DNA of 32,000 nt from the NCBI RefSeq assembly GCF_003966335.1, contig NZ_CP034549.1:180001-212000 (forward strand). The letters run 5' to 3'. The position numbers were made by a program, and so were the translations under genes. The notes under the pieces were generated by a model. It saw only the letters and a program-made list of their open reading frames with translations, ran no database searches and was not told the origin of the DNA. Positions 10,420 to 31,803 of the stretch are shown one piece after another. Each line of letters begins with the position of its first letter. Position 1 is the first letter of the stretch. Source of the stretch: Nonlabens ponticola. GTDB taxonomy: Bacteria > Bacteroidota > Bacteroidia > Flavobacteriales > Flavobacteriaceae.

Positions 10420-13239
10420 ATGAAACAATTTTTACTTTTTGTTTTAATTCTTTCTGTGTTCACGGGCGCAGCGCAATGCGTTGATCCAGACATCACAGAT
10501 TTTGAATGTGAGAATCCATCACATCCTATCACTGGAGCATTGACCAGCGTGCTCAATCCGTTTCCGCACGATATTAATAGAAGTGAAAACGTAGGTAAGT
10601 ATATAGATAACGGTCAGGCAGGATTTGACGCATTGGTCGTTGATTATGGGTCACCCATTGACTTGTCGGTAAATCCAGTTTTGAAACTTAAATTCTATTC
10701 CACCAATTCAGTTCAGATTTTAGCGAAACTAGAAGGTGGCACGCAACAAGAGCTATTTTCAGACTTCAGTCAGGTAAACACGTGGCAAGAATTTTCTTTT
10801 GATTTTAGCGCCTCGCAAGGAAACGGTAACACACGAGTGGTATTTTTTGTCAATCCTGGAGTTGAAAACGGATCACCTGCAGACGTTTATTATTTGGATG
10901 ACATTCGATTTGACAGCACCGTACTCACGCCTTGTGAAGAACCTTTTATAACCAACTTTGAATGCGCACCATTCTCCAACACTATAAATGGAGCATTGGT
11001 AACTGTAGGCAATTCAGTTTCTGGTGGAACGAATACCAGCCCTAACATAGGTCAATATACTGATGACGGTACACAAGGATTTGATGCTCTTGTGATTGAT
11101 TATGGAGCTCCTATCGATTTATCTGTGAATAGCATTTTTAAGCTCAAATTCTATTCGCCAAGTTCCGTACAAATTTTAGCCAAACTAGAAGGCGGCACGG
11201 TACAGGAAATATTCTCAGACTTCAGTCAAGTAAACACTTGGGAAGAATTCACTTTTGATTTTAGCGCATCTGTTGGTCAAGGTAACACTCGTTTAGTATT
11301 GTTCTTCAACCCATTTGTTGAATCAGGAACACCCAATGATATTTACTTTATCGATGATCTTCAATTTGGAACCCTTGAAAGAACAGTTTATAGCTATAAG
11401 AACGATACCACAGGCTGGACGCCCAACATTCCTAACGATGTAATTGATCCATCAAGTGCCATAGACAACATTGTCATTCAGGCTGGTGCAACGCAAACAA
11501 CAGGTGATTTACTCGCTGCAAATGTGACTGTAGCGTCAGGTGCAATGTTAGATGCTCAAGGGTTGAATGTAACTTCTACTTTAGATAGTCAAGGTGTGAC
11601 TAATGTTTTTGGAACGCTAACACCCAACGCTTCACAGATTACTTCAAATGGTACGCTGACCTTAAAAAGTGATGAGAATGGAACTGCAACGGTAGCTGAT
11701 GCTACCAATGCAACTTTTAACGGCGCGATAGCAGTTGAGCGATACATTCCAGCTTCCAACAGATCTTACAGATTGGTTTCTACCGCTGTTGAAAACGCTG
11801 GGCCTATCAGTTCAAATTGGCAATTGAATACGCACATTACAGGAAATGGTGGTGCTAGCAATGGTTTTGATGAAACAGGAACTAACAATCCATCCATGTT
11901 TACCGTCAACGAGCAAGCTGCACCAGCAAACTATGAAGCTATCACTACCACGGCGACAAATCTAGAACATGGGACAGGATACCTACTGTTTGTACGTGGC
12001 GATCGTTCTGTAGATCTTACAGATAATGAGGCAGCGGCTACAGCAACTACCTTATCAAGTGCAGGAACGTTATTTAGAGGAAATCTAGTACTAGGAAACA
12101 CACAGCTTAACACAGGCGATTTTGAGGCAGGTGGCAATGGATCATCCTTGATTGCCAACCCTTACCAGGCACCAGTCAATATGGAGCAGGTTTTAAATAC
12201 AGCTACAGAAATCAATCAGGAATTCATTCATGTTTATGATCCTACCTTGGGAGATCGCGGTGCTTTTGTAACCGTAGGTTTTGGCGCGGCTACAGATGGT
12301 ACAGATGACATCACCAACTTTTCTCTAGGAGCAAATGCTGGTAATGACGCATCGACTACACAGGCTTCAAGATTCCTACAGCCAGGTAGCGCTGTTTTCA
12401 TCAATACGCTAGATCCTGGAACTGATGGAACTGCAAATCCATCGCTCACATTCAGCGAGGTAGATAAGGCGATCAACAGCCCAGTTTCCATTCCTTTTGA
12501 GACGCCAGATGCTGTAGATGTCAATTCAAGTAATGCATTAGTGAGCATCAATCTCTTTGACACAGCAGCTTTTGCAAACAACGAGAGTCCTAGAGATGCA
12601 CTTGTTGTGAGATTTTCAGACCAGTATAGCAATGCCCTTGAGACAACAGATGCATTGAAAGCCACCAATCTTGATGAAAACATGGCCAGTATGGCAGATG
12701 GCCAACTCTTTAGTATTCAAAGTCGAGCGTTGCCTGTCGATGAGGAAATCATTGATTTGTCCATGACCAATTATACGATGACTGACTATACCATGAAAAT
12801 CAGCATCAATGGACTGGATGATGTCAATGCCTATCTGGTTGACAACTTTACGAACACCTCAACGCTTCTTGAGAACGACTCGGTTACCCTTGTAGAGTTC
12901 TCTGTGGACTCTTCAAATGACTCTAGTAGCAGTGAGGATCGTTTTGATTTAGCTTTCGCGAAAAGCACACTATCAAACACAGATGATCAAGCGACCAGCT
13001 TTAAACTATTCCCTAATCCTGTTAACAATGGGGTTGTTAATGTTGAACTGAGCCAGGTTACTGCTGGTCCAGCGCAGGTACACATTTACAACTCGTTAGG
13101 TCAAAATGTACAAGAAATCAAGCTAGCCGAAATAGCTGGTGTACAAACTCTAGATGTATCTAACCTAAGTCAAGGAATATACATCATGGAGATTATCCAA
13201 GACGGTACATCGACCTCGCAAAAAGTGATCATTCAATAA
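10420..13239 (+). CDS. T9SS-secreted protein: two N-terminal copies of an unassigned ~146-aa Cys-capped module, a ~540-aa Thr/Asn/Ala-rich region and a C-terminal T9SS sorting domain
   Basis: Signal peptide. Modules at nt 10477-10914 and 10933-11370. T9SS CTD at nt 13000-13236 (FKLFPNPVNNGVVNVEL...GIYIMEIIQDGTSTSQKVIIQ). Starts 6 bp after the GH3 stop. Confidence 0.8.
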   Translation: MKQFLLFVLILSVFTGAAQCVDPDITDFECENPSHPITGALTSVLNPFPHDINRSENVGKYIDNGQAGFDALVVDYGSPIDLSVNPVLKLKFYSTNSVQILAKLEGGTQQELFSDFSQVNTWQEFSFDFSASQGNGNTRVVFFVNPGVENGSPADVYYLDDIRFDSTVLTPCEEPFITNFECAPFSNTINGALVTVGNSVSGGTNTSPNIGQYTDDGTQGFDALVIDYGAPIDLSVNSIFKLKFYSPSSVQILAKLEGGTVQEIFSDFSQVNTWEEFTFDFSASVGQGNTRLVLFFNPFVESGTPNDIYFIDDLQFGTLERTVYSYKNDTTGWTPNIPNDVIDPSSAIDNIVIQAGATQTTGDLLAANVTVASGAMLDAQGLNVTSTLDSQGVTNVFGTLTPNASQITSNGTLTLKSDENGTATVADATNATFNGAIAVERYIPASNRSYRLVSTAVENAGPISSNWQLNTHITGNGGASNGFDETGTNNPSMFTVNEQAAPANYEAITTTATNLEHGTGYLLFVRGDRSVDLTDNEAAATATTLSSAGTLFRGNLVLGNTQLNTGDFEAGGNGSSLIANPYQAPVNMEQVLNTATEINQEFIHVYDPTLGDRGAFVTVGFGAATDGTDDITNFSLGANAGNDASTTQASRFLQPGSAVFINTLDPGTDGTANPSLTFSEVDKAINSPVSIPFETPDAVDVNSSNALVSINLFDTAAFANNESPRDALVVRFSDQYSNALETTDALKATNLDENMASMADGQLFSIQSRALPVDEEIIDLSMTNYTMTDYTMKISINGLDDVNAYLVDNFTNTSTLLENDSVTLVEFSVDSSNDSSSSEDRFDLAFAKSTLSNTDDQATSFKLFPNPVNNGVVNVELSQVTAGPAQVHIYNSLGQNVQEIKLAEIAGVQTLDVSNLSQGIYIMEIIQDGTSTSQKVIIQ
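12952..12966. repeat. Imperfect copy of the iterated palindrome (GCTTTCGCGAAAAGC, one extra A)
   Basis: Read directly. Lies inside CDS 10420-13239 and encodes AFAKS. Confidence 0.5.
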
Positions 13240-13256
13240 TCAAAAAACTGAACAAC

Positions 13257-13469
13257 ATGAATAGCAATAAATATTTACAACGATTTGTACTGGTGGCGGT
13301 AATCCTGTTCACCATGACCTTGATTGATGGTGATCTATATGCTCAAATAGGCGTACCAGAAGATGGTGATGTTGAAGACGTGGAAATGGCACCAATAGAT
13401 AGTCTGATATGGATTGCCATGGGCGCTGGAGCATTCATAGGCTACAAAAAACTCAAAAAAGATAACTGA
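13257..13469 (+). CDS. Hypothetical 70-aa mini-protein: N-terminal signal/TM, acidic linker, C-terminal TM helix plus basic tail
   Basis: ORF only. FVLVAVILFTMTLI...LYAQ, then VPEDGDVEDVEMAPID, then SLIWIAMGAGAFIGY-KKLKKDN. Fills the gap between two module genes (17 bp and 62 bp spacers). Coding status is unproven. Confidence 0.45.
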   Translation: MNSNKYLQRFVLVAVILFTMTLIDGDLYAQIGVPEDGDVEDVEMAPIDSLIWIAMGAGAFIGYKKLKKDN

Positions 13470-13531
13470 TTGCTAGCAGTATACAACTCAAGCAACCCCA
13501 AAACACAAACGATTACCTAAATCTACATATC

Positions 13532-14746: not shown

Positions 14747-14764
14747 TGATTAAATAAATTGAAG

Positions 14765-16792: not shown

Positions 16793-16800
16793 ATCAATGA

Positions 16801-16837
16801 AAAGTCGCCTAGCAATGCTCTAGGCGACTTTTTTTAT
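16801..16837 (+). terminator. Rho-independent terminator closing the susC-to-16792 operon
   Basis: AAAGTCGCCTAG-caatgct-CTAGGCGACTTT followed by a T-run, 9 bp after the stop codon. Confidence 0.85.
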
Positions 16838-16871
16838 CCAGTCATTAAATTGAAGGAAGGTGGTTATGATT

Positions 16872-16889
16872 ACGCTTTCGCGAAAGCGT
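16872..16889. repeat. Iterated palindrome, 18-bp perfect copy (ACGCTTTCGCGAAAGCGT)
   Basis: Read directly. Intergenic, between the PUL terminator and the GH13 start. Confidence 0.9.
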
Positions 16890-16958
16890 GATTACCACAT
16901 ACCACCTTACATATTGATTAATTTAGTATCTTTTAATTCAATACCAAATAACATTAAA

Positions 16959-18341
16959 ATGAATAAAGTAAGCCGTTGGGCAGCACTTGTTGTGGTTACT
17001 TTTTTGTGCGCATGCCAATCAAGTGATGAAGGAGTGGATGATGACTCCAGCATTCCTGTGGATCCTATTGACGATACAGCATACTCGCAATACGGCACTC
17101 CGTTTGGTCAAATTCCCGATACGGAGGACGTAGTAATGTATGAAGCTAATTTGAGAGCTATGAGTGCTGGTGGCGATTTACGTGGTGTTATCAATCGATT
17201 GGATCATATTGAGGACCTGGGTATCAATGTGATATGGCTCATGCCCATCCATCCACAGGGACAAGAAAGATCTGTCGGGTCGCCTTATGCCATAAGGGAT
17301 TATAAAGAAGTAAGCAATGAGTATGGAGATCTAGAAGATTTAAGGGAATTAACTGATGCTGCTCACTCTCTTGGGATAGCCGTAATTATGGACTGGGTCG
17401 CCAATCATACAGCTTGGGACAACGAGTGGATCGAGAATAAGGACTGGTACACTCAAGATGCAGCTGGTAACATAGTCATTCCATCTGGTACCAATTGGCA
17501 GGACGTGGCAGACTTGAATTTTGACAATCAGGAAATGAGGTCAGCGATGATAGATGCTATGAAATACTGGATCCTAGAAGCAAATATCGATGGCTATCGC
17601 TGCGACTATGCAGATGGCGTCCCAGCAGACTTCTGGGAAGATGCATGGGATGAGCTTGATGCGATTCCTAATAGAAAACTCGTGAAGCTAGCCGAAGGAA
17701 ATCGCGAAGATCATCTACAGTCAGGATTTGATTTAAACTTTGGATTTGAATTCTACGGTGCCATGATCAATGCATTTGAAGGTCAACCGGCAACCAGTAT
17801 CATGGAGAAAAGTGAAGAAGAATATGCTACCGTTCCCGATGGCAAACAAGTGTTGCGTTATACTACAAACCATGATGAGTCAGCATTTGCGGCGACGCCT
17901 ATAGAATTTTTTGGTGGTAAACAAGGAGCGCTCGCTGCTTCAACCATCACTATTTTTATGAATGGCGTGCCACTAATATATAGTAGCCAGGAAGTAGGGC
18001 GATCATCCAACGTGCCATTTTTCTCAAATTCTAGGATCGACTTTGATGCTAATCCAGATATGCTGGAATCTTACCAAAAAATGATTGCGTTTTACAACAG
18101 CTCTGCAAGTGCGAGAAAAGGAAGTACACAAGATTTCTCAAATGATGATGTTGTAAGTTTTAGAAAAACACTCAACAATGACGACGTATTAATAATAGCA
18201 AACATAAGAAACCGTGAAGTCTCATATGCTATACCTTCTAGCTTACAAAATACTGAGTGGAGTAACATCACTACCTCTAATACGGTGAGCCTGACTGGGT
18301 CCATCGATCTACAGCCGTATGAGTTTCTAATACTTGATTAA
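16959..18341 (+). CDS. GH13 alpha-amylase-family lipoprotein
   Basis: ATG 16959 gives MNKVSRWAALVVVTFLCACQ (lipobox). GH13 conserved regions: VIMDWVANHT, GYRCDYADG, KLAEG, YTTNHDE. The ORF-track start at GTG 16860 is a spurious upstream extension that runs through the palindrome. Confidence 0.88.
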   Translation: MNKVSRWAALVVVTFLCACQSSDEGVDDDSSIPVDPIDDTAYSQYGTPFGQIPDTEDVVMYEANLRAMSAGGDLRGVINRLDHIEDLGINVIWLMPIHPQGQERSVGSPYAIRDYKEVSNEYGDLEDLRELTDAAHSLGIAVIMDWVANHTAWDNEWIENKDWYTQDAAGNIVIPSGTNWQDVADLNFDNQEMRSAMIDAMKYWILEANIDGYRCDYADGVPADFWEDAWDELDAIPNRKLVKLAEGNREDHLQSGFDLNFGFEFYGAMINAFEGQPATSIMEKSEEEYATVPDGKQVLRYTTNHDESAFAATPIEFFGGKQGALAASTITIFMNGVPLIYSSQEVGRSSNVPFFSNSRIDFDANPDMLESYQKMIAFYNSSASARKGSTQDFSNDDVVSFRKTLNNDDVLIIANIRNREVSYAIPSSLQNTEWSNITTSNTVSLTGSIDLQPYEFLILD

Positions 18342-18362
18342 GTACTGTTATGATTTAATAAA

Positions 18363-18388
18363 AAAGCCTCTTCAATTGAAGAGGCTTT
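18363..18388. terminator. Hairpin terminator, copy A, flanked by an A-run and a T-run (bidirectional)
   Basis: AAAGCCTCTTC-aatt-GAAGAGGCTTT, 22 bp after the GH13 stop. Near-identical to the hairpin at 18728-18755. Confidence 0.7.
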
Positions 18389-18460
18389 GTGTGGATGACA
18401 GGAACCTGCCTGTCGTGCCTCTGGCAAGCAGGTCGAACATGCACACCTTGCGGCACTAGA
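18389..18460 (-). pseudogene. Degenerate duplicate of the 3' half of tRNA-Leu (anticodon-stem 3' strand to acceptor end) carrying a 28-nt insertion in the T-loop
   Basis: Aligns to 18755-18799 with two substitutions (18393, 18439) and an insertion at 18405-18432. There is no 5' half, so it cannot fold as a tRNA. Confidence 0.8.
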
Positions 18461-18710: not shown

Positions 18711-18727
18711 AATGTAATAATAACAAA

Positions 18728-18755
18728 AAAAGCCTCTTCAAATGAAGAGGCTTTT
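18728..18755 (-). terminator. Rho-independent terminator of tRNA-Leu (hairpin copy B)
   Basis: AAAAGCCTCTTC-aaat-GAAGAGGCTTTT. On the minus strand it is followed by a T7 run, and it starts 2 nt after the tRNA 3' end. Confidence 0.8.
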
Positions 18756-18756
18756 G

Positions 18757-18838
18757 TGCGGATGACAGGAATCGAACCTGCACACCTTGCGGCACTAGAT
18801 CCTAAGTCTAGCGTGTCTACCAGTTCCACCACATCCGC
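18757..18838 (-). tRNA. tRNA-Leu (anticodon UAG), type II with a long variable arm; CCA not encoded
   Basis: Reverse complement folds by hand. Acceptor GCGGATG/CATCCGC. D arm GTG..AACTGGTAGA..CAC. Anticodon stem CTAGA/TCTAG with loop CTTAGGA. Variable arm TGCCGCAAGGTGT. T arm GCAGG-TTCGATT-CCTGT. Discriminator A. Confidence 0.9.
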
Positions 18839-19009: not shown

Positions 19010-20395
19010 ATGAATACCAGACCGTATATAGACCAACACAAAGACCGATTTATCAACGAGCTTATTGACTTGCTCAAGATTCCATCCATCAGTGCAGATC
19101 CTGCCTACAAGGACGATGTGATCAAGACAGCACAGGTTGTTCACGACCAGCTCAAGAAAGCAGGCTGTGATCATGTTGAGATTTGTGAGACGCCAGGATA
19201 TCCTATTGTTTATGGAGAGAAAATGATCGATAAGGATCTGCCTACGGTTCTAGTTTATGGTCACTATGATGTGCAACCGCCAGATCCTGTAGAATTATGG
19301 GACAGCCCACCATTTGAGCCAGTCATCAAAAAAACCGACCTGCATCCTGATGGCGCCATCTTTGCGCGCGGCGCCTGTGACGATAAGGGCCAGATGTACA
19401 TGCACGTCAAGGCGATGGAATATATGACAACCAACAACGAGTTGCCCTGTAACGTCAAATTCATGATTGAAGGTGAAGAAGAAGTAGGTAGCGAGTCACT
19501 GGAGTGGTTCCTAGAACGCAATCAGGAAAAATTGGCTAATGACGTGATCCTGATTTCAGACACCGGTATGATTTCTAAGGAAACGCCTAGCATCACGACA
19601 GGCCTGCGTGGCCTTAGTTATGTAGAGGTAGAAGTTACAGGACCCAATCGTGACCTGCACTCTGGATTGTACGGTGGTGCCGTTGCCAATCCCATTAATA
19701 TCTTGTGCGATATGATTGGGCAATTGCATGATGAAAACAATCATATTACCATACCTGGTTTTTATGATAAAGTTGAAGAACTAAGCACAGAAGAACGTGC
19801 CGAAATGGCCAAAGCACCTTTCTCTCAAGAGGCCTACAATAAGGCGCTGGACATCAACGCAGAGCATGGTGAGAAAGGCTACACCACAAATGAGCGCAAC
19901 AGCATAAGACCAACACTAGACGTTAATGGTATTTGGGGTGGATACACTGGTGAAGGTGCCAAAACCGTCATAGCCAGCAAGGCGTTTGCCAAAATCTCCA
20001 TGCGCCTGGTTCCAGATCAGGACTGGAAAGAAATTACAGAGCTTTTCAAGAAACATTTTGAGAGCCTCGCACCAGAAAGTGTCACCGTCAAGGTAATGCC
20101 ACATCATGGTGGTATAGCCTACGTCACGCCTATCGACTCCATAGAATATCAGGCAGCTAGTGCAGCTTATGAAGATACCTTTGGTAAAAAACCTATTCCA
20201 CAACGTAGCGGTGGCTCCATTCCTATTGTCGCGCTATTTGAGAAGCAACTTAATAGCAAGTCTATTTTGATGGGCTTTGGGCTGGACAGCGATGCCATTC
20301 ACTCGCCTAACGAGCACTTTGGCGTCTGGAATTATCTTAAGGGCATCGAGACCATTCCACATTTTTACAAGCACTACACCGCGATGAAGAAGTAG
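19010..20395 (+). CDS. M20-family metallopeptidase (dipeptidase / ArgE-DapE-ACY1-CPG2 family)
   Basis: Start at ATG 19010 (MNTRPYIDQ). M20 metal-ligand motifs: VLVYGHYDVQP, ARGACDDKGQ, IEGEEEVGS, HSPNEH. Confidence 0.85.
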   Translation: MNTRPYIDQHKDRFINELIDLLKIPSISADPAYKDDVIKTAQVVHDQLKKAGCDHVEICETPGYPIVYGEKMIDKDLPTVLVYGHYDVQPPDPVELWDSPPFEPVIKKTDLHPDGAIFARGACDDKGQMYMHVKAMEYMTTNNELPCNVKFMIEGEEEVGSESLEWFLERNQEKLANDVILISDTGMISKETPSITTGLRGLSYVEVEVTGPNRDLHSGLYGGAVANPINILCDMIGQLHDENNHITIPGFYDKVEELSTEERAEMAKAPFSQEAYNKALDINAEHGEKGYTTNERNSIRPTLDVNGIWGGYTGEGAKTVIASKAFAKISMRLVPDQDWKEITELFKKHFESLAPESVTVKVMPHHGGIAYVTPIDSIEYQAASAAYEDTFGKKPIPQRSGGSIPIVALFEKQLNSKSILMGFGLDSDAIHSPNEHFGVWNYLKGIETIPHFYKHYTAMKK

Positions 20396-20414
20396 CAGTA
20401 AATAATACTCTATC

Positions 20415-20448: not shown

Positions 20449-20453
20449 GTTTA

Positions 20454-20469
20454 CGCTTTCGCGAAAGCG
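20454..20469. repeat. Iterated palindrome, 16-bp perfect copy (CGCTTTCGCGAAAGCG)
   Basis: Read directly. Intergenic. Shares the 20-mer GTTTACGCTTTCGCGAAAGC (20449-20468) with 21359-21378. Confidence 0.9.
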
Positions 20470-20483
20470 GTATAAAAACCAGA

Positions 20484-21224
20484 CTACCTAGCTTTATGAG
20501 TTCTGGTCAACACATAACGTATATCATAGATATCGACTGGCTCTGTGCAGCGTATAAGAACGCGTCCGCCGTTAGCTTCCCAAGTATTTAAGGTGTAGGC
20601 ATTGAAGGAACTCAAGTAATAGTGCTCGATACCATTACCCTTAGTCAACACAAAATCCCTGGTGTAGATGTTTCCTACCGTACCTCCAATGTTGATGGAT
20701 AGAGTAACTCGAGTATCCTCATTTGTACGAGGTCTCATTTTAAATTCAATAACCACATTGAGACCATCGCCGTTGCGTCCAGTGATCGTTTGCGAGGCCA
20801 CATTATAGAATTCAGAAACATCCACGGGCAACTGTGATTCAATCTTACTACCCGCATTGTTAGGTAAGTAGTAGGTAGTATTTGCAGCTACCAGTCCTGG
20901 TGATGTGTCGGTAAATTGCGTATCATTATAAACTGCCCAACCCGTATAATCGCTATTGGTCGTTGTCGATGACATCTCTTGCCATGTATTACCATCATAA
21001 TAATTAAAGGCATCGATATCAGTATCATAGACCAAAAGGCCTTTGGCAGGATTTACAATTGCAGCAATCTGCGCACTAGTCATCCTAGGTGTCAACATAC
21101 CTTGGGTCGTTGAGCTTACATCCAGCAATGATGATGGATCAGGATCGGTAGTACCTATACCTACTTGTGCCATTGAAGTAAGGGAAAAGCACAAGAGAAC
21201 GATAACGATGTAGAGTCTCTTCAT
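20484..21224 (-). CDS. Secreted hypothetical protein with a Bacteroidota-typical N-terminal VGIGT...L(T/I)PRMT...GLLVYDTD...YYDGxxW region
   Basis: 246 aa with a signal peptide (SLTSMAQ). I recall the N-terminal ~65 aa motif from many flavobacterial surface or hypothetical proteins. The C-terminal ~150 aa is beta-rich and unassigned. Confidence 0.6.
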   Translation of the reverse strand: MKRLYIVIVLLCFSLTSMAQVGIGTTDPDPSSLLDVSSTTQGMLTPRMTSAQIAAIVNPAKGLLVYDTDIDAFNYYDGNTWQEMSSTTTNSDYTGWAVYNDTQFTDTSPGLVAANTTYYLPNNAGSKIESQLPVDVSEFYNVASQTITGRNGDGLNVVIEFKMRPRTNEDTRVTLSINIGGTVGNIYTRDFVLTKGNGIEHYYLSSFNAYTLNTWEANGGRVLIRCTEPVDIYDIRYVLTRTHKAR

Positions 21225-21364: not shown

Positions 21365-21378
21365 GCTTTCGCGAAAGC
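21365..21378. repeat. Iterated palindrome, 14-bp core copy (GCTTTCGCGAAAGC)
   Basis: Read directly. Intergenic. Confidence 0.9.
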
Positions 21379-21747: not shown

Positions 21748-21796
21748 TTGGAACTCGGAACTTGGAGCTTGGAGCTTGGAGCTTGGAGCTTGGAAT
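21748..21796 (+). repeat. Heptanucleotide tandem repeat: (TTGGAGC)x4 perfect, flanked by diverged units TTGGAAC, TCGGAAC and TTGGAAT
   Basis: Read directly. Ends about 15 bp upstream of the first BlaI-type operator. Confidence 0.9.
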
Positions 21797-21811
21797 TTGA
21801 AAATTCCACCT

Positions 21812-21825
21812 TCTACACTTGTAGA
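21812..21825. promoter_or_regulatory. BlaI/MecI-type operator 1 (TCTACA-ct-TGTAGA palindrome)
   Basis: TACA/TGTA inverted-repeat dyad, typical of BlaI/MecI/CopY-family operators, upstream of the repressor gene. Confidence 0.6.
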
Positions 21826-21838
21826 ATTGCATTTTTAT

Positions 21839-21852
21839 TCTACATTTGTAGA
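21839..21852. promoter_or_regulatory. BlaI/MecI-type operator 2 (TCTACA-tt-TGTAGA), overlapping a TAnnTTTG -7 box (TACATTTG, 21842-21849)
   Basis: Second copy of the dyad, 27 bp after the first and 22 bp before the ATG at 21874. The overlap with a Bacteroidota -7 consensus suggests autorepression. Confidence 0.6.
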
Positions 21853-21873
21853 TGTGGTTCTAAATACATAGAA

Positions 21874-22239
21874 ATGAAGTTATCAAAGTCAGAAGAAGAA
21901 TTGATGAACATCATCTGGAAAAAGGAAAAAGCCTTTATGAAAGATTTACTAGAAGCCTACCCTGAACCCAAACCTAAAAGTACGACCATCGCTACCATGC
22001 TCAAACGCATGACCGATAAAGGTTTTGTTGGCTACAAATTGTATGGAAATAGCCGTCAGTACCACGCACTTATTGAAAAAAGCGCTTACTTCTCAAAGCA
22101 TGTCAACGGATTGATCAAGAATTTCTTTAACGACAGCGCCTCGCAGTTTGCTTCATTCTTCACCAAAGAAACCAATCTATCACAAAAAGAACTGAAAGAA
22201 CTCAAGAAAATTATTGATGACCAAATTAAAGACGCCTAG
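21874..22239 (+). CDS. BlaI/MecI/CopY-family winged-helix transcriptional repressor
   Basis: Start at ATG 21874 (MKLSKSEEELMNIIWKKEKAFMKDLLEAY...STTIATMLKRMTDKGFV...YHALI). About 121 aa, typical size. The upstream part of the tracked ORF only reads through the heptamer repeats. The stop lies 2 bp before the sensor gene. Confidence 0.85.
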   Translation: MKLSKSEEELMNIIWKKEKAFMKDLLEAYPEPKPKSTTIATMLKRMTDKGFVGYKLYGNSRQYHALIEKSAYFSKHVNGLIKNFFNDSASQFASFFTKETNLSQKELKELKKIIDDQIKDA

Positions 22240-22241
22240 CA

Positions 22242-25019: not shown

Positions 25020-25094
25020 ACTGAGCGTAAACTCAAGTTCAAGTCTAATACCATTTCGTTTATCCGCACGTTATAGTCTTCTAATCAAGAGACT

Positions 25095-26195
25095 ATGCAA
25101 TCATTTTTCATCTTCTGCAGCGGCGCAGATGCAGACCTACTGGACCAGTGCAGTGCTGGCGAGCGCAACAAATATGCAGGTATAGGCGCCACGGTATTTT
25201 TTACGGCACTTATGGCGTTTTTTGCGGCTAGCTATGCGTTATTCACTGTATTTGATAGCTATTTAATTGCTAGTGCTTTTGGCTTGGTTTGGGGTTTGTT
25301 AATCTTCAATCTGGATCGCTATATCGTGAGCACGCTCAAGAAAAGTGACAGGAAAATTAATGAGATCTGGCAGGCGACGCCGCGCATTCTGCTGGCGATT
25401 ATCATTGCCGTCGTCATTTCAAAACCGTTGGAGCTCAAGATCTTTGAAAAGGAGATCGATCAGGTGCTGCTGGAACAAAAGAATCAGTTGACATTAGCTA
25501 ATCAGGAACAAGTTGGCTTGCTGTATGCTGGTGACGAGTTAGCTTTCGCGAAAGCTATACAAGAATTAAACAACGAAATTGCGACCAAGGAAGCGCAAGT
25601 CGAGCAACTATACAGCACGTACATCGCAGAGGCCGAAGGAACCGCAGGCACCAACCGCATAGGAAAAGGACCAGTTTATCAAGAGAAACGCGACAAACAC
25701 GACGCCGCACTCGCTGAATTGACATCACTCAAAGCCATCAACGCAGCCAAAATTGCAGACCTTGAATCGCAGCTAGCACAACTGCAAACCCAAGAAGCCG
25801 AACAGCTTGCCGCAACGCAGCCCGTAATTGATAATTTTGATGGATTGATGGCGCGTATTGCTGCGCTCAACTCGCTACCGTTCTTGACTTCGTTCTTCAT
25901 TTTTCTCTTGTTTCTAGCGGTAGAAACCTCACCAATTATTGCCAAACTACTCGCACCGCGCGGTGAGTATGACTACAAGCTAGCCGAGCGTGAGAACCTT
26001 GTAAAATCATGGGTGTTGCAGCAACAGTCACAGCAACAAATCCTCATGCAAACCGATCGTGAACTCAACAACCGAGTTTACAGCGACATCGCCGACGAGG
26101 ACGAACTCTACCAGTACAAAAAGAAAACCGCACGCCAACTCATGCAAAAACAAGCCGATGCTTTCTATGAGAAGCAAAAACGTATTTTGGGGTAG
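25095..26195 (+). CDS. DUF4407-like membrane protein with a central coiled coil
   Basis: N-terminus FFIFCSGADADLLDQCSAGERNKYAGIGATVFFTA, then TM helices and LIFNLDRYIV, as I recall for DUF4407. Long Q/E/A-rich coiled coil and a further TM (LPFLTSFFIFLLFLAVE). Family call is from memory. Confidence 0.6.
   Translation: MQSFFIFCSGADADLLDQCSAGERNKYAGIGATVFFTALMAFFAASYALFTVFDSYLIASAFGLVWGLLIFNLDRYIVSTLKKSDRKINEIWQATPRILLAIIIAVVISKPLELKIFEKEIDQVLLEQKNQLTLANQEQVGLLYAGDELAFAKAIQELNNEIATKEAQVEQLYSTYIAEAEGTAGTNRIGKGPVYQEKRDKHDAALAELTSLKAINAAKIADLESQLAQLQTQEAEQLAATQPVIDNFDGLMARIAALNSLPFLTSFFIFLLFLAVETSPIIAKLLAPRGEYDYKLAERENLVKSWVLQQQSQQQILMQTDRELNNRVYSDIADEDELYQYKKKTARQLMQKQADAFYEKQKRILG
25540..25557. 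repeat. Iterated palindrome, 18-bp perfect copy (TAGCTTTCGCGAAAGCTA)
   Basis: Read directly. Inside CDS 25095-26195, encoding LAFAKAI. Confidence 0.9.
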
Positions 26196-26211
26196 ATGGA
26201 GGATTAAGAGT

Positions 26212-26260
26212 GTGGAGTATGGAGTATGGAGTATGGAGTATGGAGTATGGAGTATGGAAA
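26212..26260 (+). repeat. Heptanucleotide tandem repeat: GTGGAGT, (ATGGAGT)x5, ATGGAAA
   Basis: Read directly. Starts 17 bp after the DUF4407-like stop codon. Confidence 0.9.
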
Positions 26261-26310
26261 CTGAACGATTCTTATGACATCTATGCTTAATTAAAGAACT
26301 CGTACTTGTC

Positions 26311-26331
26311 ATGCTGAGTTCAGCTCAGCAT
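26311..26331 (+). other. 8-bp stem hairpin (ATGCTGAG-ttcag-CTCAGCAT) within a REP-like motif TGTCATGCTGA...GCATC
   Basis: Read directly. No T-run follows, so a terminator role is uncertain. An inverted, related motif lies at 21626-21651. Confidence 0.4.
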
Positions 26332-26435
26332 CTTGCACAGTTTAAATTATACAATAAGCGTGGATTCATAAGCAACGCACATGTTCTATCACCGCAATGC
26401 TCTATCATCTTAGCCGCAAGACGTATCTTGCTACC

Positions 26436-27089
26436 ATGTTTTTTCTACCTAAGGATCTTGATGATTACATAGTGCAGCACTCTCAGGACGAGCCGCAAAT
26501 TTTGCAGGATTTGACACGCGAGACCTATCGCAAGGTATTGCAACCCATCATGCTTTCTGGCGCTTATCAGGGTCGCGTGTTGAGTATGATCTCACAGTTG
26601 CGCGCACCTAAACAAGTTCTAGAAATTGGCACATTCACGGGTTATTCCGCACTGTGTTTGATGGAAGGCATGCCCGATGGCAGTGAACTGCACACTATTG
26701 ATATCAATGAAGAACTTGAGGATATGGCTGCTGGATACTTTGCACGCTTTCGCGAAAGCGAGAACAAAAACATCACCATCCACCAACATATAGGCGATGC
26801 AACTACCATTATACCATCACTGCAAGCTGGCTTTGATTTAGTCTTCATTGATGCAGACAAGCCTAACTACGTCAATTACTACCACCAAGTCATGGAAAAA
26901 GTGACATCTGGCGCCTTGATCATTACCGATAATGTCCTGTGGCACGGGAAAGTTGTGAAAGATGTAAAGCCTAAGGATAGCTCAACACCTATCCTATTAG
27001 AATACAACAAATTGCTTAAGGAAGATCCTAGATTACAAACTGTTTTGTTAAGCGTGCGTGATGGTTTGACACTAAGTCGAGTGCTGTAA
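26436..27089 (+). CDS. Class I SAM-dependent O-methyltransferase (caffeoyl-CoA O-methyltransferase-like, Methyltransf_3 type)
   Basis: Start at ATG 26436. Motif I VLEIGTFTGYSALCL, then FIDADKPNY and ITDNVLWHGKV, typical of cation-dependent O-methyltransferases. Confidence 0.8.
   Translation: MFFLPKDLDDYIVQHSQDEPQILQDLTRETYRKVLQPIMLSGAYQGRVLSMISQLRAPKQVLEIGTFTGYSALCLMEGMPDGSELHTIDINEELEDMAAGYFARFRESENKNITIHQHIGDATTIIPSLQAGFDLVFIDADKPNYVNYYHQVMEKVTSGALIITDNVLWHGKVVKDVKPKDSSTPILLEYNKLLKEDPRLQTVLLSVRDGLTLSRVL
26745..26760. repeat. Iterated palindrome, 16-bp perfect copy (CGCTTTCGCGAAAGCG)
   Basis: Read directly. Inside the O-methyltransferase CDS, encoding RFRES. Confidence 0.9.
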
Positions 27090-27922: not shown

Positions 27923-27960
27923 ATTACAAATATACAATCTTGTATATCGCGGCACTATTT

Positions 27961-28806: not shown

Positions 28807-28820
28807 ACTTCTATAAACAC

Positions 28821-28850
28821 AAAAAAGCCAGATTCATTGTGAATCTGGCT
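28821..28850 (-). terminator. Rho-independent terminator of the M1 peptidase gene
   Basis: GCCAGATTC-attgt-GAATCTGGC. On the minus strand it is followed by a T6 run, and it lies about 25 bp after the stop at 28875. Confidence 0.8.
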
Positions 28851-28874
28851 TCAAATTTATGGTTTAAAGAACGG

Positions 28875-31175
28875 TTAGTTCTTCATTTCCTCAAACTTAT
28901 CTACTGTTGCTTCCTGCGGCCATGTGTTATTGGTCACGTCAACATCAGCAGTTTCTAGGTTAGGATCTATAACGATTTTTGTCACCTCTTTCATGGTGGC
29001 TTTACTTATAGTTACTTCCTTGTCATTGTATCTCCAGATTTCCGCTGGGTGCGTTACCATCTCTGTAGAGCCATCTGCATAAGTGTACTCAAGGATGATA
29101 GGCATCACCAATCCACCTGGCTTCTCAACAGTAACCTGATAGAAGTATTTAGGAGACTTCATCATACCACGTTCTTCTGGTGTGAAGTTGTCCATAAGGT
29201 ACTCGTTAAGAGCCACAGCTTCTTCTTTAGGATCTTTTCCCTTGAGATTCTCATCAAATTCTTCACTGCCTTCTTTTACCATAAAAACTAACGGTGGTAA
29301 ACGATCTAGTGGAATTCCTCTTTCTTCAGCGATTTTCTTAGTTTCTGCATTGATCTCATTGGAAACATAAAATCTATCAACCTCACCAATAGCCATATCT
29401 GTATATTGAGTTGTATAGAACCAGCCTCTCCAGAACCAGTCTAGATCAACGGCACTTGCATCTTCCATGGTGCGGAAGAAATCCTCAGGCGTTGGGTGCT
29501 TGAACATCCATCGCTGTGAATACGTACGGAATGCATAGTCAAATAAATCTCTACCCATGATTGTCTCACGCAAAATGTTCAAACCAGTAGCTGGCTTTGC
29601 GTAGGCGTTAGAACCAAATTGGTAGGTATTGATACCCTTTGTCATGATAGGTGCAATAAATCTTTGATCACCGCCCATGTAAGGAACGATGGCAGCTGCT
29701 GGGCCACGACGTGATGGATATTTGTCTAGATCTTGATCACCTTTAAGAGCCTCTGGATAGTTCTCTCCAAAATCCTGCTCTGCCACATACTGTACAAAAG
29801 TGTTCAAACCTTCATCCATCCATGTCCATTGACGCTCGTCACTATTCACGATCATTGGGAAATAATTATGTCCTACCTCGTGGATAATTACCGATATCAT
29901 TCCATATTTAGTACGGTCAGAATAAACGCCGTTCTCGTCTGGACGACCATAGTTCCAGCAAATCATAGGATATTCCATCCCTTGATTTTTTGCATGAACT
30001 GATATTGCTTTAGGATAAGGATAGTCAAAGGTCATTCTAGAGTAAGACTCTAGTGTTTGCTTTACAGCATACGTTGACCACTGCTCCCATAAAGGATTAC
30101 CTTCTGGCGGGTAGATAGAAACGGCCATGATGTCCTTTCCTCCTACTTTTACTGCCATCGCATCGGCGATGTATCTTCTTGAAGAAGTCCAACCAAAGTC
30201 ACGTACATAATCAGCCTTGAGCTTCCATGTTTTAGTCGCTGTTGCATTTCCTTGAGCCATTTTTTCTGCTTCTTCTTGAGTACGCAGGATTACTGGCTTA
30301 TCATAGCTTTTAGTTGCTTGCTCATAGCGGTTCATTTCCGTTTTTGAATAAACGTCTTTCTTGTTTTGGATAACTCCGGTACCGTCTAACCAGTGATCTG
30401 CAGGAACGGTGATGTTTACTTCAAACGTACCAAACGGTAGCGCAAACTCATCACGACCCCAGAACTGACTGTTTTGCCATCCTTCAACATCATTATAAAC
30501 AGCCATACGTGGATAGAACTGTGCAATTACATAAGCTCTATTACCATCAGGGAACTCTTCATAACCACTACGGCCGCGACCGTCAACGTGGTTGTTTATG
30601 TTGTAATCCCATTCAATGTCAAATTCAAATGACTTGCCTGGCTTCAAGGTTTCTGGCAACTCCACTCGCATCATCGTTTGATTGATGGTGTAGGTAAGAC
30701 CTTTTCCTTTGCTGTCAAGAACTTTGGTAATATTAAACCCACCATCAAAAGGCTCTTTCAAGAACGTGCTGGCAAAGTTTGACGGTGTCGTCGCAGACGG
30801 TACACCACTTCCTTCAATCAAAGGTGATTTAGAATCCTTGGCACGTACGTTTTGATCTAGTTGTACCCATAGGTAATCTAGATTGTCTGGTGACTTGTTA
30901 GTATAAGTGATCGTCTCATAACCGTTGATGTGATGATTTGCATCATCCAGTTTGATATCCATCTTGTAGTCAGCACGCTGCTGGTAATACATAGGACCTG
31001 GCGCTCCACTCGCGCTGCGGTACTGGTTAGGAGTTGAGAATTCCTGATACAGTTGACGGAATTTGTTCTCATTGGCATGTTCCTTAGCAGGCTCTTCTTG
31101 CTTCTCTGCTTCCTGTGCAAAGGAACCGTAAGAAACAAGCATCATTCCTAGAAACAGAAATTTAATTGCTTTCAT
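28875..31175 (-). CDS. M1-family zinc metallopeptidase (aminopeptidase N-like), secreted
   Basis: 766 aa with a signal peptide. Gluzincin signature HEVGHNYF...(18 aa)...WMDEGLNTF. Confidence 0.88.
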   Translation of the reverse strand: MKAIKFLFLGMMLVSYGSFAQEAEKQEEPAKEHANENKFRQLYQEFSTPNQYRSASGAPGPMYYQQRADYKMDIKLDDANHHINGYETITYTNKSPDNLDYLWVQLDQNVRAKDSKSPLIEGSGVPSATTPSNFASTFLKEPFDGGFNITKVLDSKGKGLTYTINQTMMRVELPETLKPGKSFEFDIEWDYNINNHVDGRGRSGYEEFPDGNRAYVIAQFYPRMAVYNDVEGWQNSQFWGRDEFALPFGTFEVNITVPADHWLDGTGVIQNKKDVYSKTEMNRYEQATKSYDKPVILRTQEEAEKMAQGNATATKTWKLKADYVRDFGWTSSRRYIADAMAVKVGGKDIMAVSIYPPEGNPLWEQWSTYAVKQTLESYSRMTFDYPYPKAISVHAKNQGMEYPMICWNYGRPDENGVYSDRTKYGMISVIIHEVGHNYFPMIVNSDERQWTWMDEGLNTFVQYVAEQDFGENYPEALKGDQDLDKYPSRRGPAAAIVPYMGGDQRFIAPIMTKGINTYQFGSNAYAKPATGLNILRETIMGRDLFDYAFRTYSQRWMFKHPTPEDFFRTMEDASAVDLDWFWRGWFYTTQYTDMAIGEVDRFYVSNEINAETKKIAEERGIPLDRLPPLVFMVKEGSEEFDENLKGKDPKEEAVALNEYLMDNFTPEERGMMKSPKYFYQVTVEKPGGLVMPIILEYTYADGSTEMVTHPAEIWRYNDKEVTISKATMKEVTKIVIDPNLETADVDVTNNTWPQEATVDKFEEMKN

Positions 31176-31242
31176 GTAAATATTTAATTTTTGACTAATG
31201 GGTGCTAATTTAAGAATAAAGAAATCGTTGTAGGTATCAAAC

Positions 31243-31803
31243 CTAAAACTTTACCTGATCCACAGGCGTATCCTTTGAATTGAGCAAGCTTTTGCGCTTG
31301 TCGTGTAATTTAAAATGTACAAGGTTTTTTTGATCTGGAAATAGCTCAAACAGCGCCTTATAACTCAGCTCAACTGTATTCGGCTCTCTAGCTACGGGTA
31401 ATTCTATGTAGAGTAGTATCTGGTCTGCATCATATTCTGCGCCAATTACCTTGGGATCTATGTCCTTGCCGTCAATGGATGCCGTGAGGCGCTTAGGAAT
31501 ATATTTTTGAAATAGGGCTAGTTGTGACGGCAATGTTTCTGGGTTTCCTAGAATGACTTCCGTTCCAGTTCGAGCTTCCAGCACGTCCTGAAAATCATCA
31601 ATAAAGAATCTGGATACCATTTGCAGCGCTCCAGCCTTCTCACTGTATGCTACATTAGATACTGATAGATAGTATTTGTGGTCTGTGGTGTTTATGCTTT
31701 CGCGAAAGCGTAACTCCAACAAATCAACGTCTTCATGAGTAGAATTGTCAACAGGAATGGCCATACCGACAAGTGCGATCAAACCAAGAAAAAATAATTT
31801 CAT
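31243..31803 (-). CDS. Hypothetical secreted protein (DUF6702-like, commonly next to M1 peptidase genes in Flavobacteriia)
   Basis: 186 aa with a signal peptide. The family name and the adjacency are recalled from memory only. Contains one copy of the palindrome (31695-31708). Confidence 0.5.
   Translation of the reverse strand: MKLFFLGLIALVGMAIPVDNSTHEDVDLLELRFRESINTTDHKYYLSVSNVAYSEKAGALQMVSRFFIDDFQDVLEARTGTEVILGNPETLPSQLALFQKYIPKRLTASIDGKDIDPKVIGAEYDADQILLYIELPVAREPNTVELSYKALFELFPDQKNLVHFKLHDKRKSLLNSKDTPVDQVKF
31695..31708. repeat. Iterated palindrome, 14-bp core copy (GCTTTCGCGAAAGC)
   Basis: Read directly. Inside CDS 31243-31803 (minus strand), encoding RFRES. Confidence 0.9.

Follow-up and report, generated by a model that had tools for sequence, protein, structure and literature searches.

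Copies of the palindrome in the window

The window, i.e., the whole 32-kb stretch of DNA analysed here, which most likely belongs to Nonlabens ponticola, contains six exact copies of GCTTTCGCGAAAGC, which start at positions 16874, 20455, 21365, 25542, 26746 and 31696. Besides these there is a single variant with one extra A (GCTTTCGCGAAAAGC) at 12952-12966. An earlier note on this DNA had claimed that the palindrome is non-random, and we agree. Not one copy of GCTTTCGCGAAAGC appeared in any of 100 dinucleotide-preserving shuffles of the window, and only about 6e-5 copies per 32 kb are expected from composition. The window has ten TCGCGA sites, and the motif accounts for seven of them. The palindrome lengths given previously (18, 16, 14, 18, 16 and 14 bp) are borne out from the flanks, as is the division into three intergenic copies (16874, 20455, 21365) and four coding ones (12952, 25542, 26746, 31696).

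Among the intergenic copies, the perfect 18-bp palindrome ACGCTTTCGCGAAAGCGT (16872-16889) has a terminator (16800-16832) on one side and the start of an alpha-amylase gene on the other. The real (lipoprotein) start of this gene is at about 16959, and the 3' flank of the copy is A/C-rich (ACCACATACCACC). A perfect 16-bp copy, CGCTTTCGCGAAAGCG (20454-20469), is located between two convergent genes. These are an M20 peptidase gene, which ends at 20395 ahead of a hairpin and T-run of its own, and a gene for a 246-aa protein (20484-21224, minus strand). The perfect 14-bp copy at 21365-21378 is 140 nt upstream of the 246-aa gene, within the divergent region that this gene has in common with blaI (21748-22239). 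The 20-mer that had been pointed out in both copies flanking the 246-aa gene is real (GTTTAC plus the core, at 20449 and 21359), but it is no sign of a duplication. It is shared because the extended consensus of the motif prefers T, T, A/T/C and C at positions -4 to -1. By our own estimate, about one such case is expected by chance, given the 14 half-sites in the window.

The genes that hold the four coding copies have Pfam support. The variant with the extra A is in the gene for a 939-aa protein (10420-13239, plus strand), where it is read as AFAKS and forms part of the linker immediately ahead of the T9SS C-terminal sorting domain. Variants of this type, a half-site plus an A-run, are found again elsewhere. 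The perfect 18-bp palindrome TAGCTTTCGCGAAAGCTA (25540-25557) is read as AFAKA inside a DUF4407 gene (25095-26195, plus strand), and the same site is occupied in N. marinus (L199 position 9312). Two further copies are read as RFRES. One is a perfect 16-bp copy (26745-26760) in a variable loop of an O-methyltransferase gene (26436-27089, plus strand). The other is a perfect 14-bp copy (31696-31709) inside a DUF6702 gene (31243-31803, minus strand), where it falls in the linker downstream of the signal peptide and has a G/T-rich 5' flank (TGTGGTCTGTGGTGTTTAT). For this last copy, the coordinates reported earlier (31695-31708) were off by one nucleotide.

Abundance and distribution

The earlier note had proposed a count against expectation and a survey across the genus, and both support it. 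In 850 kb of Nonlabens-type DNA, which is not a whole-genome set, we counted 208 perfect copies, and 0.001 are expected. The motif is present in 10 of the 10 Nonlabens isolate or MAG loci examined, among them loci of N. marinus, Ci31, N. spongiae, N. ulvanivorans, N. tegetincola, Hel1_33_55, YIK11 and two MAGs, and in about 104 Nonlabens-like metagenome stretches. The isolate genomes, MAGs and metagenomes are independent and come from many projects. Each Nonlabens locus of about 20 kb has 3-6 copies, an unlinked YIK11 locus included, and the density over loci and metagenome stretches is about one per 4.5-10 kb. This value rests on about 200 kb of isolate DNA and on metagenome stretches picked for containing the motif; no whole-genome census was made. 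By extrapolation from this density, a 3-Mb Nonlabens genome should hold several hundred copies.

Across 1.46 Mb of DNA from other Flavobacteriaceae genera (78 loci), no copy was present, and no comparable dispersed palindrome was found in the other genera examined. The motif is thus genus-wide and genus-restricted in the loci examined. Our literature searches gave no description of this palindrome in Bacteroidota, in line with the earlier remark that it had not been described for Flavobacteriia. We conclude that CGCTTTCGCGAAAGCG is a genus-specific, highly iterated palindrome of Nonlabens that acts at the level of DNA.

Coding context and origin by substitution

About 60% of the copies are within conserved genes. 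Among 207 copies, 121 are clearly coding and 45 clearly intergenic, which is an approximately 2-3-fold enrichment of intergenic copies over the expected non-coding fraction. The clear coding copies use the three reading frames 61, 33 and 27 times, so that the same DNA word gives AFAKA, RFRES or LSRKR, and the codons at motif sites are identical between species. Since all three frames are used and the codons are identical across species, the motif acts on the DNA level and not on the protein level.

Orthologues from other genera align with the motif-bearing proteins without gaps. In other genera, the counterpart of the VanY segment PLSRKRY reads PVSIPML, PLSKPYL or PISQNYL. The acetyltransferase segment YAFAKAN corresponds to NWAREKN and NYAKENK, and the PAP2 segment YAFAKAY to LVFYLVY. 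Because the alignments are gap-free, these copies arose by substitution and not by insertion. New copies form by base substitution at partly motif-like sequences, in genes (in any frame) or between genes.

Conservation, gain and sharpness

Six of eight Nonlabens species have a perfect core at one shared offset of the O-methyltransferase gene, six of eight at the same position of the DUF6702 gene, and four of six at the VanY site, even though identity between these species is only 66-78% (M1 peptidase gene). As a control, 0.8% of the 14-nt windows in the region reach conservation in six of eight species, and those windows encode peptidase catalytic motifs. Judged by these three sites against the control windows, conservation between genomes exceeds what coding constraint explains. 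Copies remain perfect at the same position among species in which neutral sites are saturated.

In three separate clades, the acetyltransferase site matches the motif perfectly or with a single mismatch, and relatives of those clades retain the outgroup-like GAATTTGCAAAGGA. This implies that the site was gained convergently in the three clades, under a strong directional push. The copies are also sharply defined. There are 208 perfect copies, 20 with one mismatch and 25 with two, i.e., a ratio of perfect to one-mismatch copies of 10:1. CpG transitions account for 4 of the 20 variants with one mismatch. A motif copy in N. spongiae carries an in-frame insertion of a second palindrome.

Extended flanks and structure

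Preferences at individual positions run about 13-20 bp past the core on each side and are two-fold symmetric. T is favoured at -3, -4, -7, -10 and -13. On the 5' side the sequence is rich in T and G and poor in C, and the 3' side mirrors this, being poor in G. This skew is seen in intergenic copies and in all coding phases. In the intergenic copies it resembles C-to-T change on the 5' flank of each strand, and at the acetyltransferase site it arises together with the core. There is no flank-to-flank pairing beyond ±4. The core hairpin is weak, with a 5-bp stem, -2.1 kcal/mol and a z-score of -0.2, which is no better than shuffled sequence. As the flanks are symmetric and unpaired and the core hairpin is weak, recognition by a protein is favoured over a folded structure. 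The motif has no match in Rfam, and neither a flanking sequence common to the copies nor a target duplication was found. The view that the copies are not terminators holds, in that they have no T-run and a terminator scan scores none of them as terminator-like.

Phages and restriction sites

The lytic Nonlabens phages P12024S and P12024L have no copy in 70.7 kb, a small sample for which the motif status of the host, IMCC12024, is unverified. Prophage-like IMG/VR contigs have three copies per 11-12 kb, a density like that of the host, and some of these copies lie within genes for a head-maturation protease and for a head-protein/protease-like product. We read this as a sign that DNA acquires the motif only after a long stay in the host gene pool, with the reservation that applies to so few phages and an unverified host strain. 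Host TCGCGA and CGCG outside the motif are near expectation. The lytic phages have no TCGCGA, yet 11 other 6-bp palindromes are likewise absent from them. The data speak neither for nor against a methyltransferase or restriction system that recognises TCGCGA/CGCG.

Discussion

The earlier note likened the motif to HIP1 of cyanobacteria (GCGATCGC), and the likeness extends to over-representation, a location mostly in genes and in all three frames, origin by substitution and conserved orthologous positions. Like the Nonlabens motif, HIP1 is a perfect palindrome that is hugely over-represented and clade-wide, is found within and between genes in any reading frame, and spreads by nucleotide substitution. 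Its orthologous positions are also conserved beyond codon constraint (PMC5861425). The function of HIP1 was long unknown, as is the case here, and it has now been tied to transformation and recombination (bioRxiv 10.1101/2024.09.10.611283; 10.64898/2026.06.24.733823). However, the sequence CGCTTTCGCGAAAGCG is unrelated to GCGATCGC, and the core is 14-16 bp, or about 40 bp in all with the flanks, compared with 8 bp for HIP1. The density is about one per 4.5-10 kb compared with up to more than one per gene, and the range is one Bacteroidota genus compared with a phylum. HIP1 has known cognate methyltransferases, whereas none is known for the Nonlabens motif, and we found no paper on a methyltransferase recognising its core. 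As sequence and organism differ, the motif is an analogue of HIP1 and not a member of the HIP1 family.

By its length and the structure of its flanks, the motif appears closer to a DNA uptake sequence than to the 8-bp HIP1. The USS of Haemophilus and the DUS of Neisseria are 9-12 bp or more with a weaker, A/T-rich extended flank consensus, and occur in hundreds to thousands per genome in a genus- or family-specific manner. Within genes they use all frames and prefer protein segments under weaker constraint, and they are also enriched in intergenic DNA. They originate by point substitution, share orthologous positions, and are scarce in DNA that has not been long in the gene pool. A clade-specific, over-represented word of at least about 10 bp with a weaker flank consensus is one hallmark of such sequences, and the Nonlabens motif has it, with its 16-bp core and a flank signal to about -13 to -20. 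It also resembles USS and DUS in numbers, in placement in and between genes, in substitution origin and in sharing orthologous positions. The differences are that neither USS nor DUS is palindromic, that both have a pilin or uptake machinery as their reader, in species of proven competence, and that the excess of perfect over near-perfect copies seems sharper in Nonlabens.

We hypothesize that the motif is a genus-specific tag, similar to HIP1 and USS, which is read by a symmetric DNA-binding protein and has spread via biased uptake or recombination, selection, or both. We give this reading a probability of about one half (0.5), with its mechanism inferred and not shown. A dimeric, sequence-specific protein with two-fold symmetry would recognise the core in double-stranded DNA, although no such receptor has been identified. 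Motif-bearing DNA might then be favoured in exchange within the Nonlabens gene pool, though natural competence has not been shown, through preferential uptake, more efficient homologous recombination, or both. Such a bias, possibly together with direct selection at each site, could push near-matches to perfect and hold them there. Several observations on other systems are relevant here. HIP1 is conserved under selection (PMC5861425), boosts transformation in a methylation-dependent and Chi-like manner (bioRxiv 10.1101/2024.09.10.611283) and has been proposed as a DNA uptake sequence (bioRxiv 10.64898/2026.06.24.733823). Riemerella columbina, also of the Flavobacteriaceae, has natural competence and a preference for its own DNA (PMC7965970); it is the only precedent from the family that we can cite, and an indirect one. 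Against the tag, no experiment or gene evidence ties Nonlabens to natural competence, and no receptor, methyltransferase or recombination factor has been identified in an analysis that did not extend to whole genomes. The known uptake sequences are, to our knowledge, not palindromes and 9-12 bp in length. The 10:1 excess of perfect copies may also be sharper than expected from a simple model of uptake bias, and it fits strong selection at each site, e.g., of architectural binding sites, at least as well.

It is conceivable, if unlikely, that the copies are architectural sites for a dimeric nucleoid, segregation or occlusion-type protein, maintained for chromosome organisation by ordinary purifying selection without any role in DNA exchange. 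The Noc-binding site (ATTTCCCGGGAAAT), parS, matS and the SlmA-binding site, read by Noc, ParB, MatP and SlmA, are likewise 12-16-bp perfect or near-perfect palindromes with dimeric protein readers, often in genes and conserved, and the TTTC...GAAA outline is common to the Noc site and the Nonlabens motif. The symmetric core and flank preferences without hairpin covariation, the very strong orthologous conservation, the scarcity of near-perfect copies and the lack of the motif in lytic phages would all suit such sites, and a role in chromosome structure was inferred for HIP1 by Xu et al. (PMC5861425). However, prophage-like elements bear the motif at host density, and the convergent gains at in-gene pre-sites, seen in three clades, point to strong directional pressure. 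Architectural palindromes number about 10-100 per chromosome with a regional bias. We know of none that reaches the several hundred per genome estimated here; known cases number in the tens. We also doubt that the motif is a neutral by-product of sequence-biased mutation or repair, e.g., of the very-short-patch type, in which a system tied to a CGCG/TCGCGA methyltransferase keeps converting near-matches to a functionless word, as was once proposed for HIP1. The substitution origin, the two CpGs and NruI-type site of the core, the four CpG transitions and the C-to-T-like intergenic flank skew would agree with this, and HIP1 has been linked to orphan methyltransferases (PMC4390886). But no copies exist in the lytic phages, whose replication is confined to Nonlabens cells, the flank signal has discrete T peaks in place of a uniform skew, and TCGCGA and CGCG beyond the motif are not far from expectation. 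The conservation analysis of HIP1 likewise argued against replenishment by biased repair (PMC5861425). The size of the word is a further difficulty. We know of no repair system that reads 14-16 bp plus flanks.

The remaining explanations fare poorly. A role in RNA (terminator, processing site or attenuator hairpin) or as a transcription-factor operator is very improbable. A small hairpin is possible, the copies at 20455, 16874 and 21365 adjoin gene ends or starts, and the G-poor, A/C-rich tract that, in a transcript of either direction, would come after the hairpin loosely recalls a Rho loading site. Nevertheless, the stem is on par with shuffled sequence, neither the terminator scan nor Rfam supports it, and the real terminators of the window look canonical. 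Most copies are in genes on either strand, a structural role would not require an invariant sequence, and an operator would not be expected at as many as several hundred sites. Spread of a miniature mobile element or REP/REPIN-type family by a transposase (RAYT) has next to no support. The motif does share with REP/REPIN, MITEs and Rickettsia palindromic elements, the last of which can sit in-frame within genes, that it is a short, palindromic, dispersed repeat, and the intergenic enrichment and the in-frame palindrome of N. spongiae could be cited in favour. Those families are insertions, and REPs are extragenic and RAYT-dependent, whereas Nonlabens copies replace existing codons, lack common flanks or target duplications, and fill the same sites in species that are 66-78% identical. 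For the coding copies, whose length is unchanged relative to orthologues, we regard this explanation as refuted. Finally, the recurrence of AFAKA, RFRES and LSRKR is all that could suggest a conserved peptide motif. We regard this, and an assembly or contamination artefact, as already refuted by the three different peptides from one DNA word, the 45 of 207 clearly non-coding copies and the independent sources of the data.

A resemblance to the recombination hotspot Chi (crossover hotspot instigator) provides a lead, not a test. Chi occurs about once per 5 kb in E. coli, a density similar to that of the Nonlabens motif, and has a G/T-rich sequence context. It differs in being 5-8 nt, asymmetric and oriented with replication, and a palindromic, bidirectional 16-bp Chi has no precedent known to us. 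On either strand of the Nonlabens motif, the approximately 20 nt 5' of the core are G/T-rich, and this would be the recombinogenic 3' tail strand.

Copies of the palindrome in the window

The iterated palindrome is present in the window as six exact copies of the 14-mer GCTTTCGCGAAAGC, starting at 16874, 20455, 21365, 25542, 26746 and 31696, and as a seventh copy with one extra A at 12952. The 14-mer is absent from all 100 of 100 dinucleotide-preserving shuffles of the window, and the palindrome accounts for seven of the ten TCGCGA sites found there. These copies had been listed in an earlier note made from the sequence alone. They are real, though the start of the last one was off by one. According to gene calls and Pfam matches, housekeeping genes follow a Flavobacteriaceae polysaccharide-utilisation region in the window. 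Four copies are inside supported genes, i.e., those for a T9SS-tailed protein (12952), a DUF4407 protein (25542), an O-methyltransferase (26746) and a DUF6702 protein (31696). Those at 20455 and 21365 are intergenic, as is that at 16874, given that the real lipoprotein start of the amylase gene is near 16959. With this start corrected, the split into three intergenic and four coding copies proposed in the note holds. Its view that the copies are not terminators is also supported, since none has a T-run and none is scored as terminator-like, while scoring does pick out canonical terminators at other positions in the window. All of the best relatives of the O-methyltransferase belong to Nonlabens, and the N. 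marinus protein is 85% identical to it. A foreign origin for the motif-free first 12.9 kb of the window, within the polysaccharide-utilisation region, is not significantly supported (P ~0.06, with similar GC).

Distribution in Nonlabens and other genera

We compared 80 loci around the O-methyltransferase orthologue (1.5 Mb), taken from among the matches listed in a species-representative genome collection. Each of the two Nonlabens-type loci carries five copies within about 20.5 kb, and the palindrome has no copy in the 78 loci from other genera (1.46 Mb; Olleya, Winogradskyella, Aquimarina, Flavobacterium, Salegentibacter, Leeuwenhoekiella and others). N. marinus, Nonlabens sp. Ci31, N. spongiae, N. 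ulvanivorans and N. tegetincola each have three to six copies per 20.6 kb. With the window added, the Nonlabens loci considered up to this point average one copy per 4.7 kb (38 copies over 178 kb). An unlinked locus of strain YIK11 has a further five in 21.3 kb. The question of distribution across the genus, raised in the earlier note, is thus answered by a presence in every Nonlabens locus examined. A comparable dispersed palindrome was not found among the 78 loci of other Flavobacteriaceae genera. Some of these loci (L150, L166, L180, L187, L193 and L192, the last from Flavobacterium soli) have multi-copy words of their own within 20 kb, such as CCCGAAGCTTCGGG in F. soli. None is as frequent as the Nonlabens palindrome, and these words could be REP-like or tandem elements with no relation to it.

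A metagenome scan with the 16-mer CGCTTTCGCGAAAGCG returned at least 120 stretches, which are therefore selected for carrying the palindrome. Among the stretches listed, 104 have 31-46% GC and the other 16 are high-GC singletons at chance level. When only the extra copies are counted, the frequency in the listed stretches is still one per 8-10 kb. After perfect copies are masked (about 1 Mb), the commonest 12-mers are still half or near copies of the palindrome. The one contig that was checked, from an Antarctic-lake metagenome, is Nonlabens at 99% protein identity.

Anatomy of the site

We pooled 207 non-redundant copies. Counting flank positions outward from the core, C is found at -1 in 91% of half-sites, giving the core CGCTTTCGCGAAAGCG, and this value is partly inflated as the scan had used the 16-mer. 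Past the core, base preferences follow a two-fold-symmetric and position-specific pattern. T is found at -3 and -4 in 60-65% of half-sites (68-76% of intergenic half-sites), with further T peaks at -7, -10 and -13. The C content of the 5' flank is 8-10% out to about -20, compared with a background of 19%, and the 3' flank mirrors this in being G-poor and A/C-rich. The flank signal is seen in intergenic copies and in all three coding phases. Beyond ±4, the flanks of one copy are no more complementary to each other than are flanks of different copies. The core hairpin reaches only -2.1 kcal/mol and shuffled sequence does as well. Therefore, the palindrome is a symmetric site of about 40 bp and not a long hairpin. 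As such, it is suggestive of a symmetric protein reading the DNA rather than of a folded nucleic acid, with protein binding being inferred.

Origin by substitution and conservation

The 207 copies comprise 121 that are clearly coding, 45 that are clearly intergenic and 41 that are ambiguous. All three frames are used by the coding copies, which encode AFAKA (61), (R)FRES (33) or LSRK(R) (27), and the peptides align without gaps to orthologues from other genera. For example, PLSRKRY of VanY is aligned with PVSIPML, PLSKPYL and PISQNYL, YAFAKAN of an acetyltransferase with NWAREKN and NYAKENK, and YAFAKAY of PAP2 with LVFYLVY. Hence, the copies took the place of existing codons and were not inserted. 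The O-methyltransferase copy is the sole one in a loop that is also variable in length between genera.

The sites are retained between species that are otherwise well diverged, the neighbouring M1 peptidase gene being 66-78% identical at the nucleotide level among eight Nonlabens species. The core is perfect in six of the eight species at the O-methyltransferase site, in six of eight at the DUF6702 site and in four of six at the VanY site. As a control, 0.8% of the ungapped 14-nt windows of this region are identical in at least six of eight species, and these encode catalytic segments of the peptidase. At the acetyltransferase site, the core is perfect in two species and has one mismatch in a third. 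The three belong to different clades, and their relatives keep an outgroup-like sequence, GAATTTGCAAAGGA, which is five to seven mismatches away. The core was thus gained convergently here, at a pre-site. The flank skew goes with the core here, with 0-1 C and 0-1 G where the core is present and 2-4 of each where it is not. Perfect copies number 208 in 850 kb, with a further 20 having one mismatch and 25 having two, compared with chance values of 0.001, 0.06 and 1.4, respectively. Some force drives sequences to the perfect word and keeps them there.

Phages and prophages

No copy of the palindrome is present in P12024S or P12024L, the two lytic Nonlabens phages that have been sequenced (70.7 kb in total). 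The absence of TCGCGA from them is not specific, because these phages avoid many 6-bp palindromes in general and 12 different ones are wholly missing. Several low-GC IMG/VR contigs among the matches listed have two or three copies with typical flanks, some of them inside a head-maturation-protease gene and a head-protein/protease-like gene. The contigs with these intragenic copies also encode portal and major-head proteins. One IMG/VR contig is part of an isolate genome, so it is presumably prophage DNA. The palindrome thus accumulates in DNA that is long resident in the host gene pool and not in DNA that merely replicates there, as far as two lytic phages can tell and with the palindrome unverified in their host strain.

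A separate observation concerns TTCGAA, which is nearly missing both from host DNA (six observed vs 65 expected in the pooled Nonlabens loci) and from the lytic phages (two vs 23). Such depletion is suggestive of a TTCGAA-specific restriction system that is widespread in the genus. The centre of the palindrome, TTCGCGAA, is TTCGAA with an extra CG.

Discussion

Several readings of the palindrome can be set aside. A mobile element or REP family, which the earlier note held would refute its view, is ruled out by the gap-free coding copies and by flanks that are alike in composition but not in sequence. The absence of pairing beyond ±4 excludes a longer hairpin, and the lack of T-runs and terminator calls, the weak hairpin and the lack of an Rfam match at any copy exclude a terminator or a structured or known RNA. 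An operator would not be expected at several hundred sites (an estimate and not a census), most of them intragenic, and a peptide motif would not use three frames. The data also exclude an artefact.

HIP1, the highly iterated palindrome of cyanobacteria, has been unexplained for about 30 years. The DNA uptake sequences (USS/DUS) are long, clade-specific words with extended flanks, which are intragenic in all frames and enriched between genes, and our palindrome has each of these features in common with them. Its behaviour, by analogy, matches both of these known classes of genome-wide iterated words. The likeness to HIP1 proposed in the earlier note is borne out by the substitution origin, the coding and intergenic sites and the conservation across species. 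HIP1 is likewise a perfect palindrome that is spread by substitution and conserved between genomes (PMC5861425). According to one report, HIP1 enhances natural transformation in a Chi-like way that depends on methylation (bioRxiv 10.1101/2024.09.10.611283), and it has been proposed as a DNA uptake sequence (bioRxiv 10.64898/2026.06.24.733823). Within the Flavobacteriaceae, Riemerella columbina is naturally competent and prefers self-DNA, with no uptake sequence defined (PMC7965970).

Based on these likenesses, we suggest as the best explanation that the palindrome is a genus-specific tag of self-DNA. A dimeric protein would read it as the mark of DNA from its own genus, and biased uptake or recombination would spread it, with direct selection on each site possibly adding to the spread. 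The receptor, the competence of Nonlabens and any methylation are all inferred. The main rival is that the copies are architectural binding sites kept by plain purifying selection. This reading is in keeping with the symmetry of the palindrome and with how sharply perfect copies predominate, but it would need an unusually high number of sites. A by-product purely of host repair should build up in any DNA replicating in these cells, and the lack of such accumulation in lytic-phage DNA argues against it, if only modestly. Returning to the self-DNA tag, a more speculative feature is that the flanks put G/T-rich sequence on the would-be 3' tail strand on either side of the core, giving the look of a bidirectional recombination hotspot. 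In its fullest form, the proposal is that this is the first uptake and/or recombination-hotspot signal of the Bacteroidota, namely a self-DNA tag that is orientation-independent since it is palindromic, with a dimeric receptor and mirror-image G/T-rich flanks that place a RecA-friendly 3' tail on either side, depending on where DNA-end processing starts, i.e., a bidirectional Chi/DUS hybrid. We regard this as tentative, with a chance of roughly three in ten.

In the literature searched, neither this sequence nor any iterated palindrome or uptake sequence of Nonlabens or Flavobacteriia is described, in agreement with the earlier note. The kind of phenomenon is known. What is new is a 16-bp perfect palindrome with mirror-skewed flanks in only one genus of Bacteroidota. 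USS, DUS, HIP1 and Chi are rare cases of sequence evolving under a force on DNA itself, and the palindrome is an independent example of an iterated word in another phylum. It is unusual in its long and perfectly palindromic core, its clear one-genus boundary and its convergent gains inside housekeeping genes. This opens comparative tests of which genes co-occur with the palindrome, whether it is a mark of self-DNA for uptake or recombination, and what the cost to protein sequence is. In addition, it is a near-diagnostic marker of Nonlabens DNA in metagenomes, and regions without it could be flagged as recently acquired. If it promotes transformation, these marine polysaccharide degraders could become genetically tractable. 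If the uptake or hotspot reading is true, Nonlabens would be a second independent system, beside cyanobacterial HIP1, for asking why bacteria fill their genomes with iterated palindromes.

Neighbouring repeats and gene order

A second palindrome family, (G)TCCCGATAGCTATCGGGA(C), is found in N. spongiae (L201, 10311-10338, ~72-105 and 10850-10869) and in one further locus (L304, 5085-5112). In three cases it is joined to one half of the main palindrome, twice as GCTTTCGCGA|TCCCGATAGCTATCGGGA and once in mirror image as TCCCGGTAGCTATCGGGA|TCGCGAAAGCGTAA. One of the former inserts 18 nt in frame into the O-methyltransferase gene, giving RFRDPDSYRDT. The fusions look as if a nested palindrome had entered the main one at its TCGCGA centre. 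At the orthologous DUF6702 site of Nonlabens sp. Ci31 (L200, 15285-15335), a longer imperfect hairpin-like sequence, GCTTTTTCCGGTCGTCCGGATTTCGTCGAAGGAAAAG, takes the place of the main palindrome. Thus, two orthologous sites each have one species with an insertion at the centre or close to it.

The secreted 246-aa protein encoded at 20484-21224 of the window (- strand) has no known function, and a copy of the main palindrome is found on either side of its gene. Its C-terminal 150 residues resemble a protein of phages P12024S and P12024L (25% identity, E = 2e-6; phage CDS 29070-29648). The gene is absent from the syntenic N. marinus locus, where divergence of the intergenic sequence is too great for an insertion to be defined. 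A role of the shared 20-mer around it as a duplication or cassette boundary is unsupported, as the extended consensus accounts for the 20-mer.

Gene order 3' of the O-methyltransferase gene is kept in eight of eight species (PAP2, TatA, an unknown gene, M1 peptidase, DUF6702 and onwards) and breaks immediately upstream of it in most (window ~26200-26436; L199-L204, further Nonlabens loci, ~9900-10000). On this side the window and N. marinus have DUF4407 as the neighbour, and Ci31, N. spongiae, N. ulvanivorans and N. tegetincola each have a different gene. Only one locus (L120) has a copy of the palindrome at this break, so the suggestion that copies coincide with rearrangement breakpoints is not upheld.

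Other repeats are also present. Just upstream of the O-methyltransferase gene there is an intergenic tandem repeat of GAGTATG with about seven units (26208-26258), which was reported as three copies spaced by 14 nt. A GAGCTTG repeat is found at the start of the blaI ORF (21765-21787), and the M20-blaI spacer of N. marinus has a comparable TTTTGA array (L199, ~1935-1960). N. marinus has three BlaR1-like paralogues vs one in the window. A tRNA gene (18757-18838, - strand) is within a 330-nt segment flanked by near-identical terminator hairpins, AAAAGCCTCTTCAATTGAAGAGGCTTT (18362-18393 and 18724-18755), as inverted repeats that are 91% complementary. Between 10476 and 16633, a domain-sized module of ~460-500 nt recurs about six times in diverged form across three consecutive genes, two for T9SS-tailed proteins and one for a CBM_4_9 protein. 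This is an internally repeated carbohydrate-binding module family downstream of a SusC/SusD pair.
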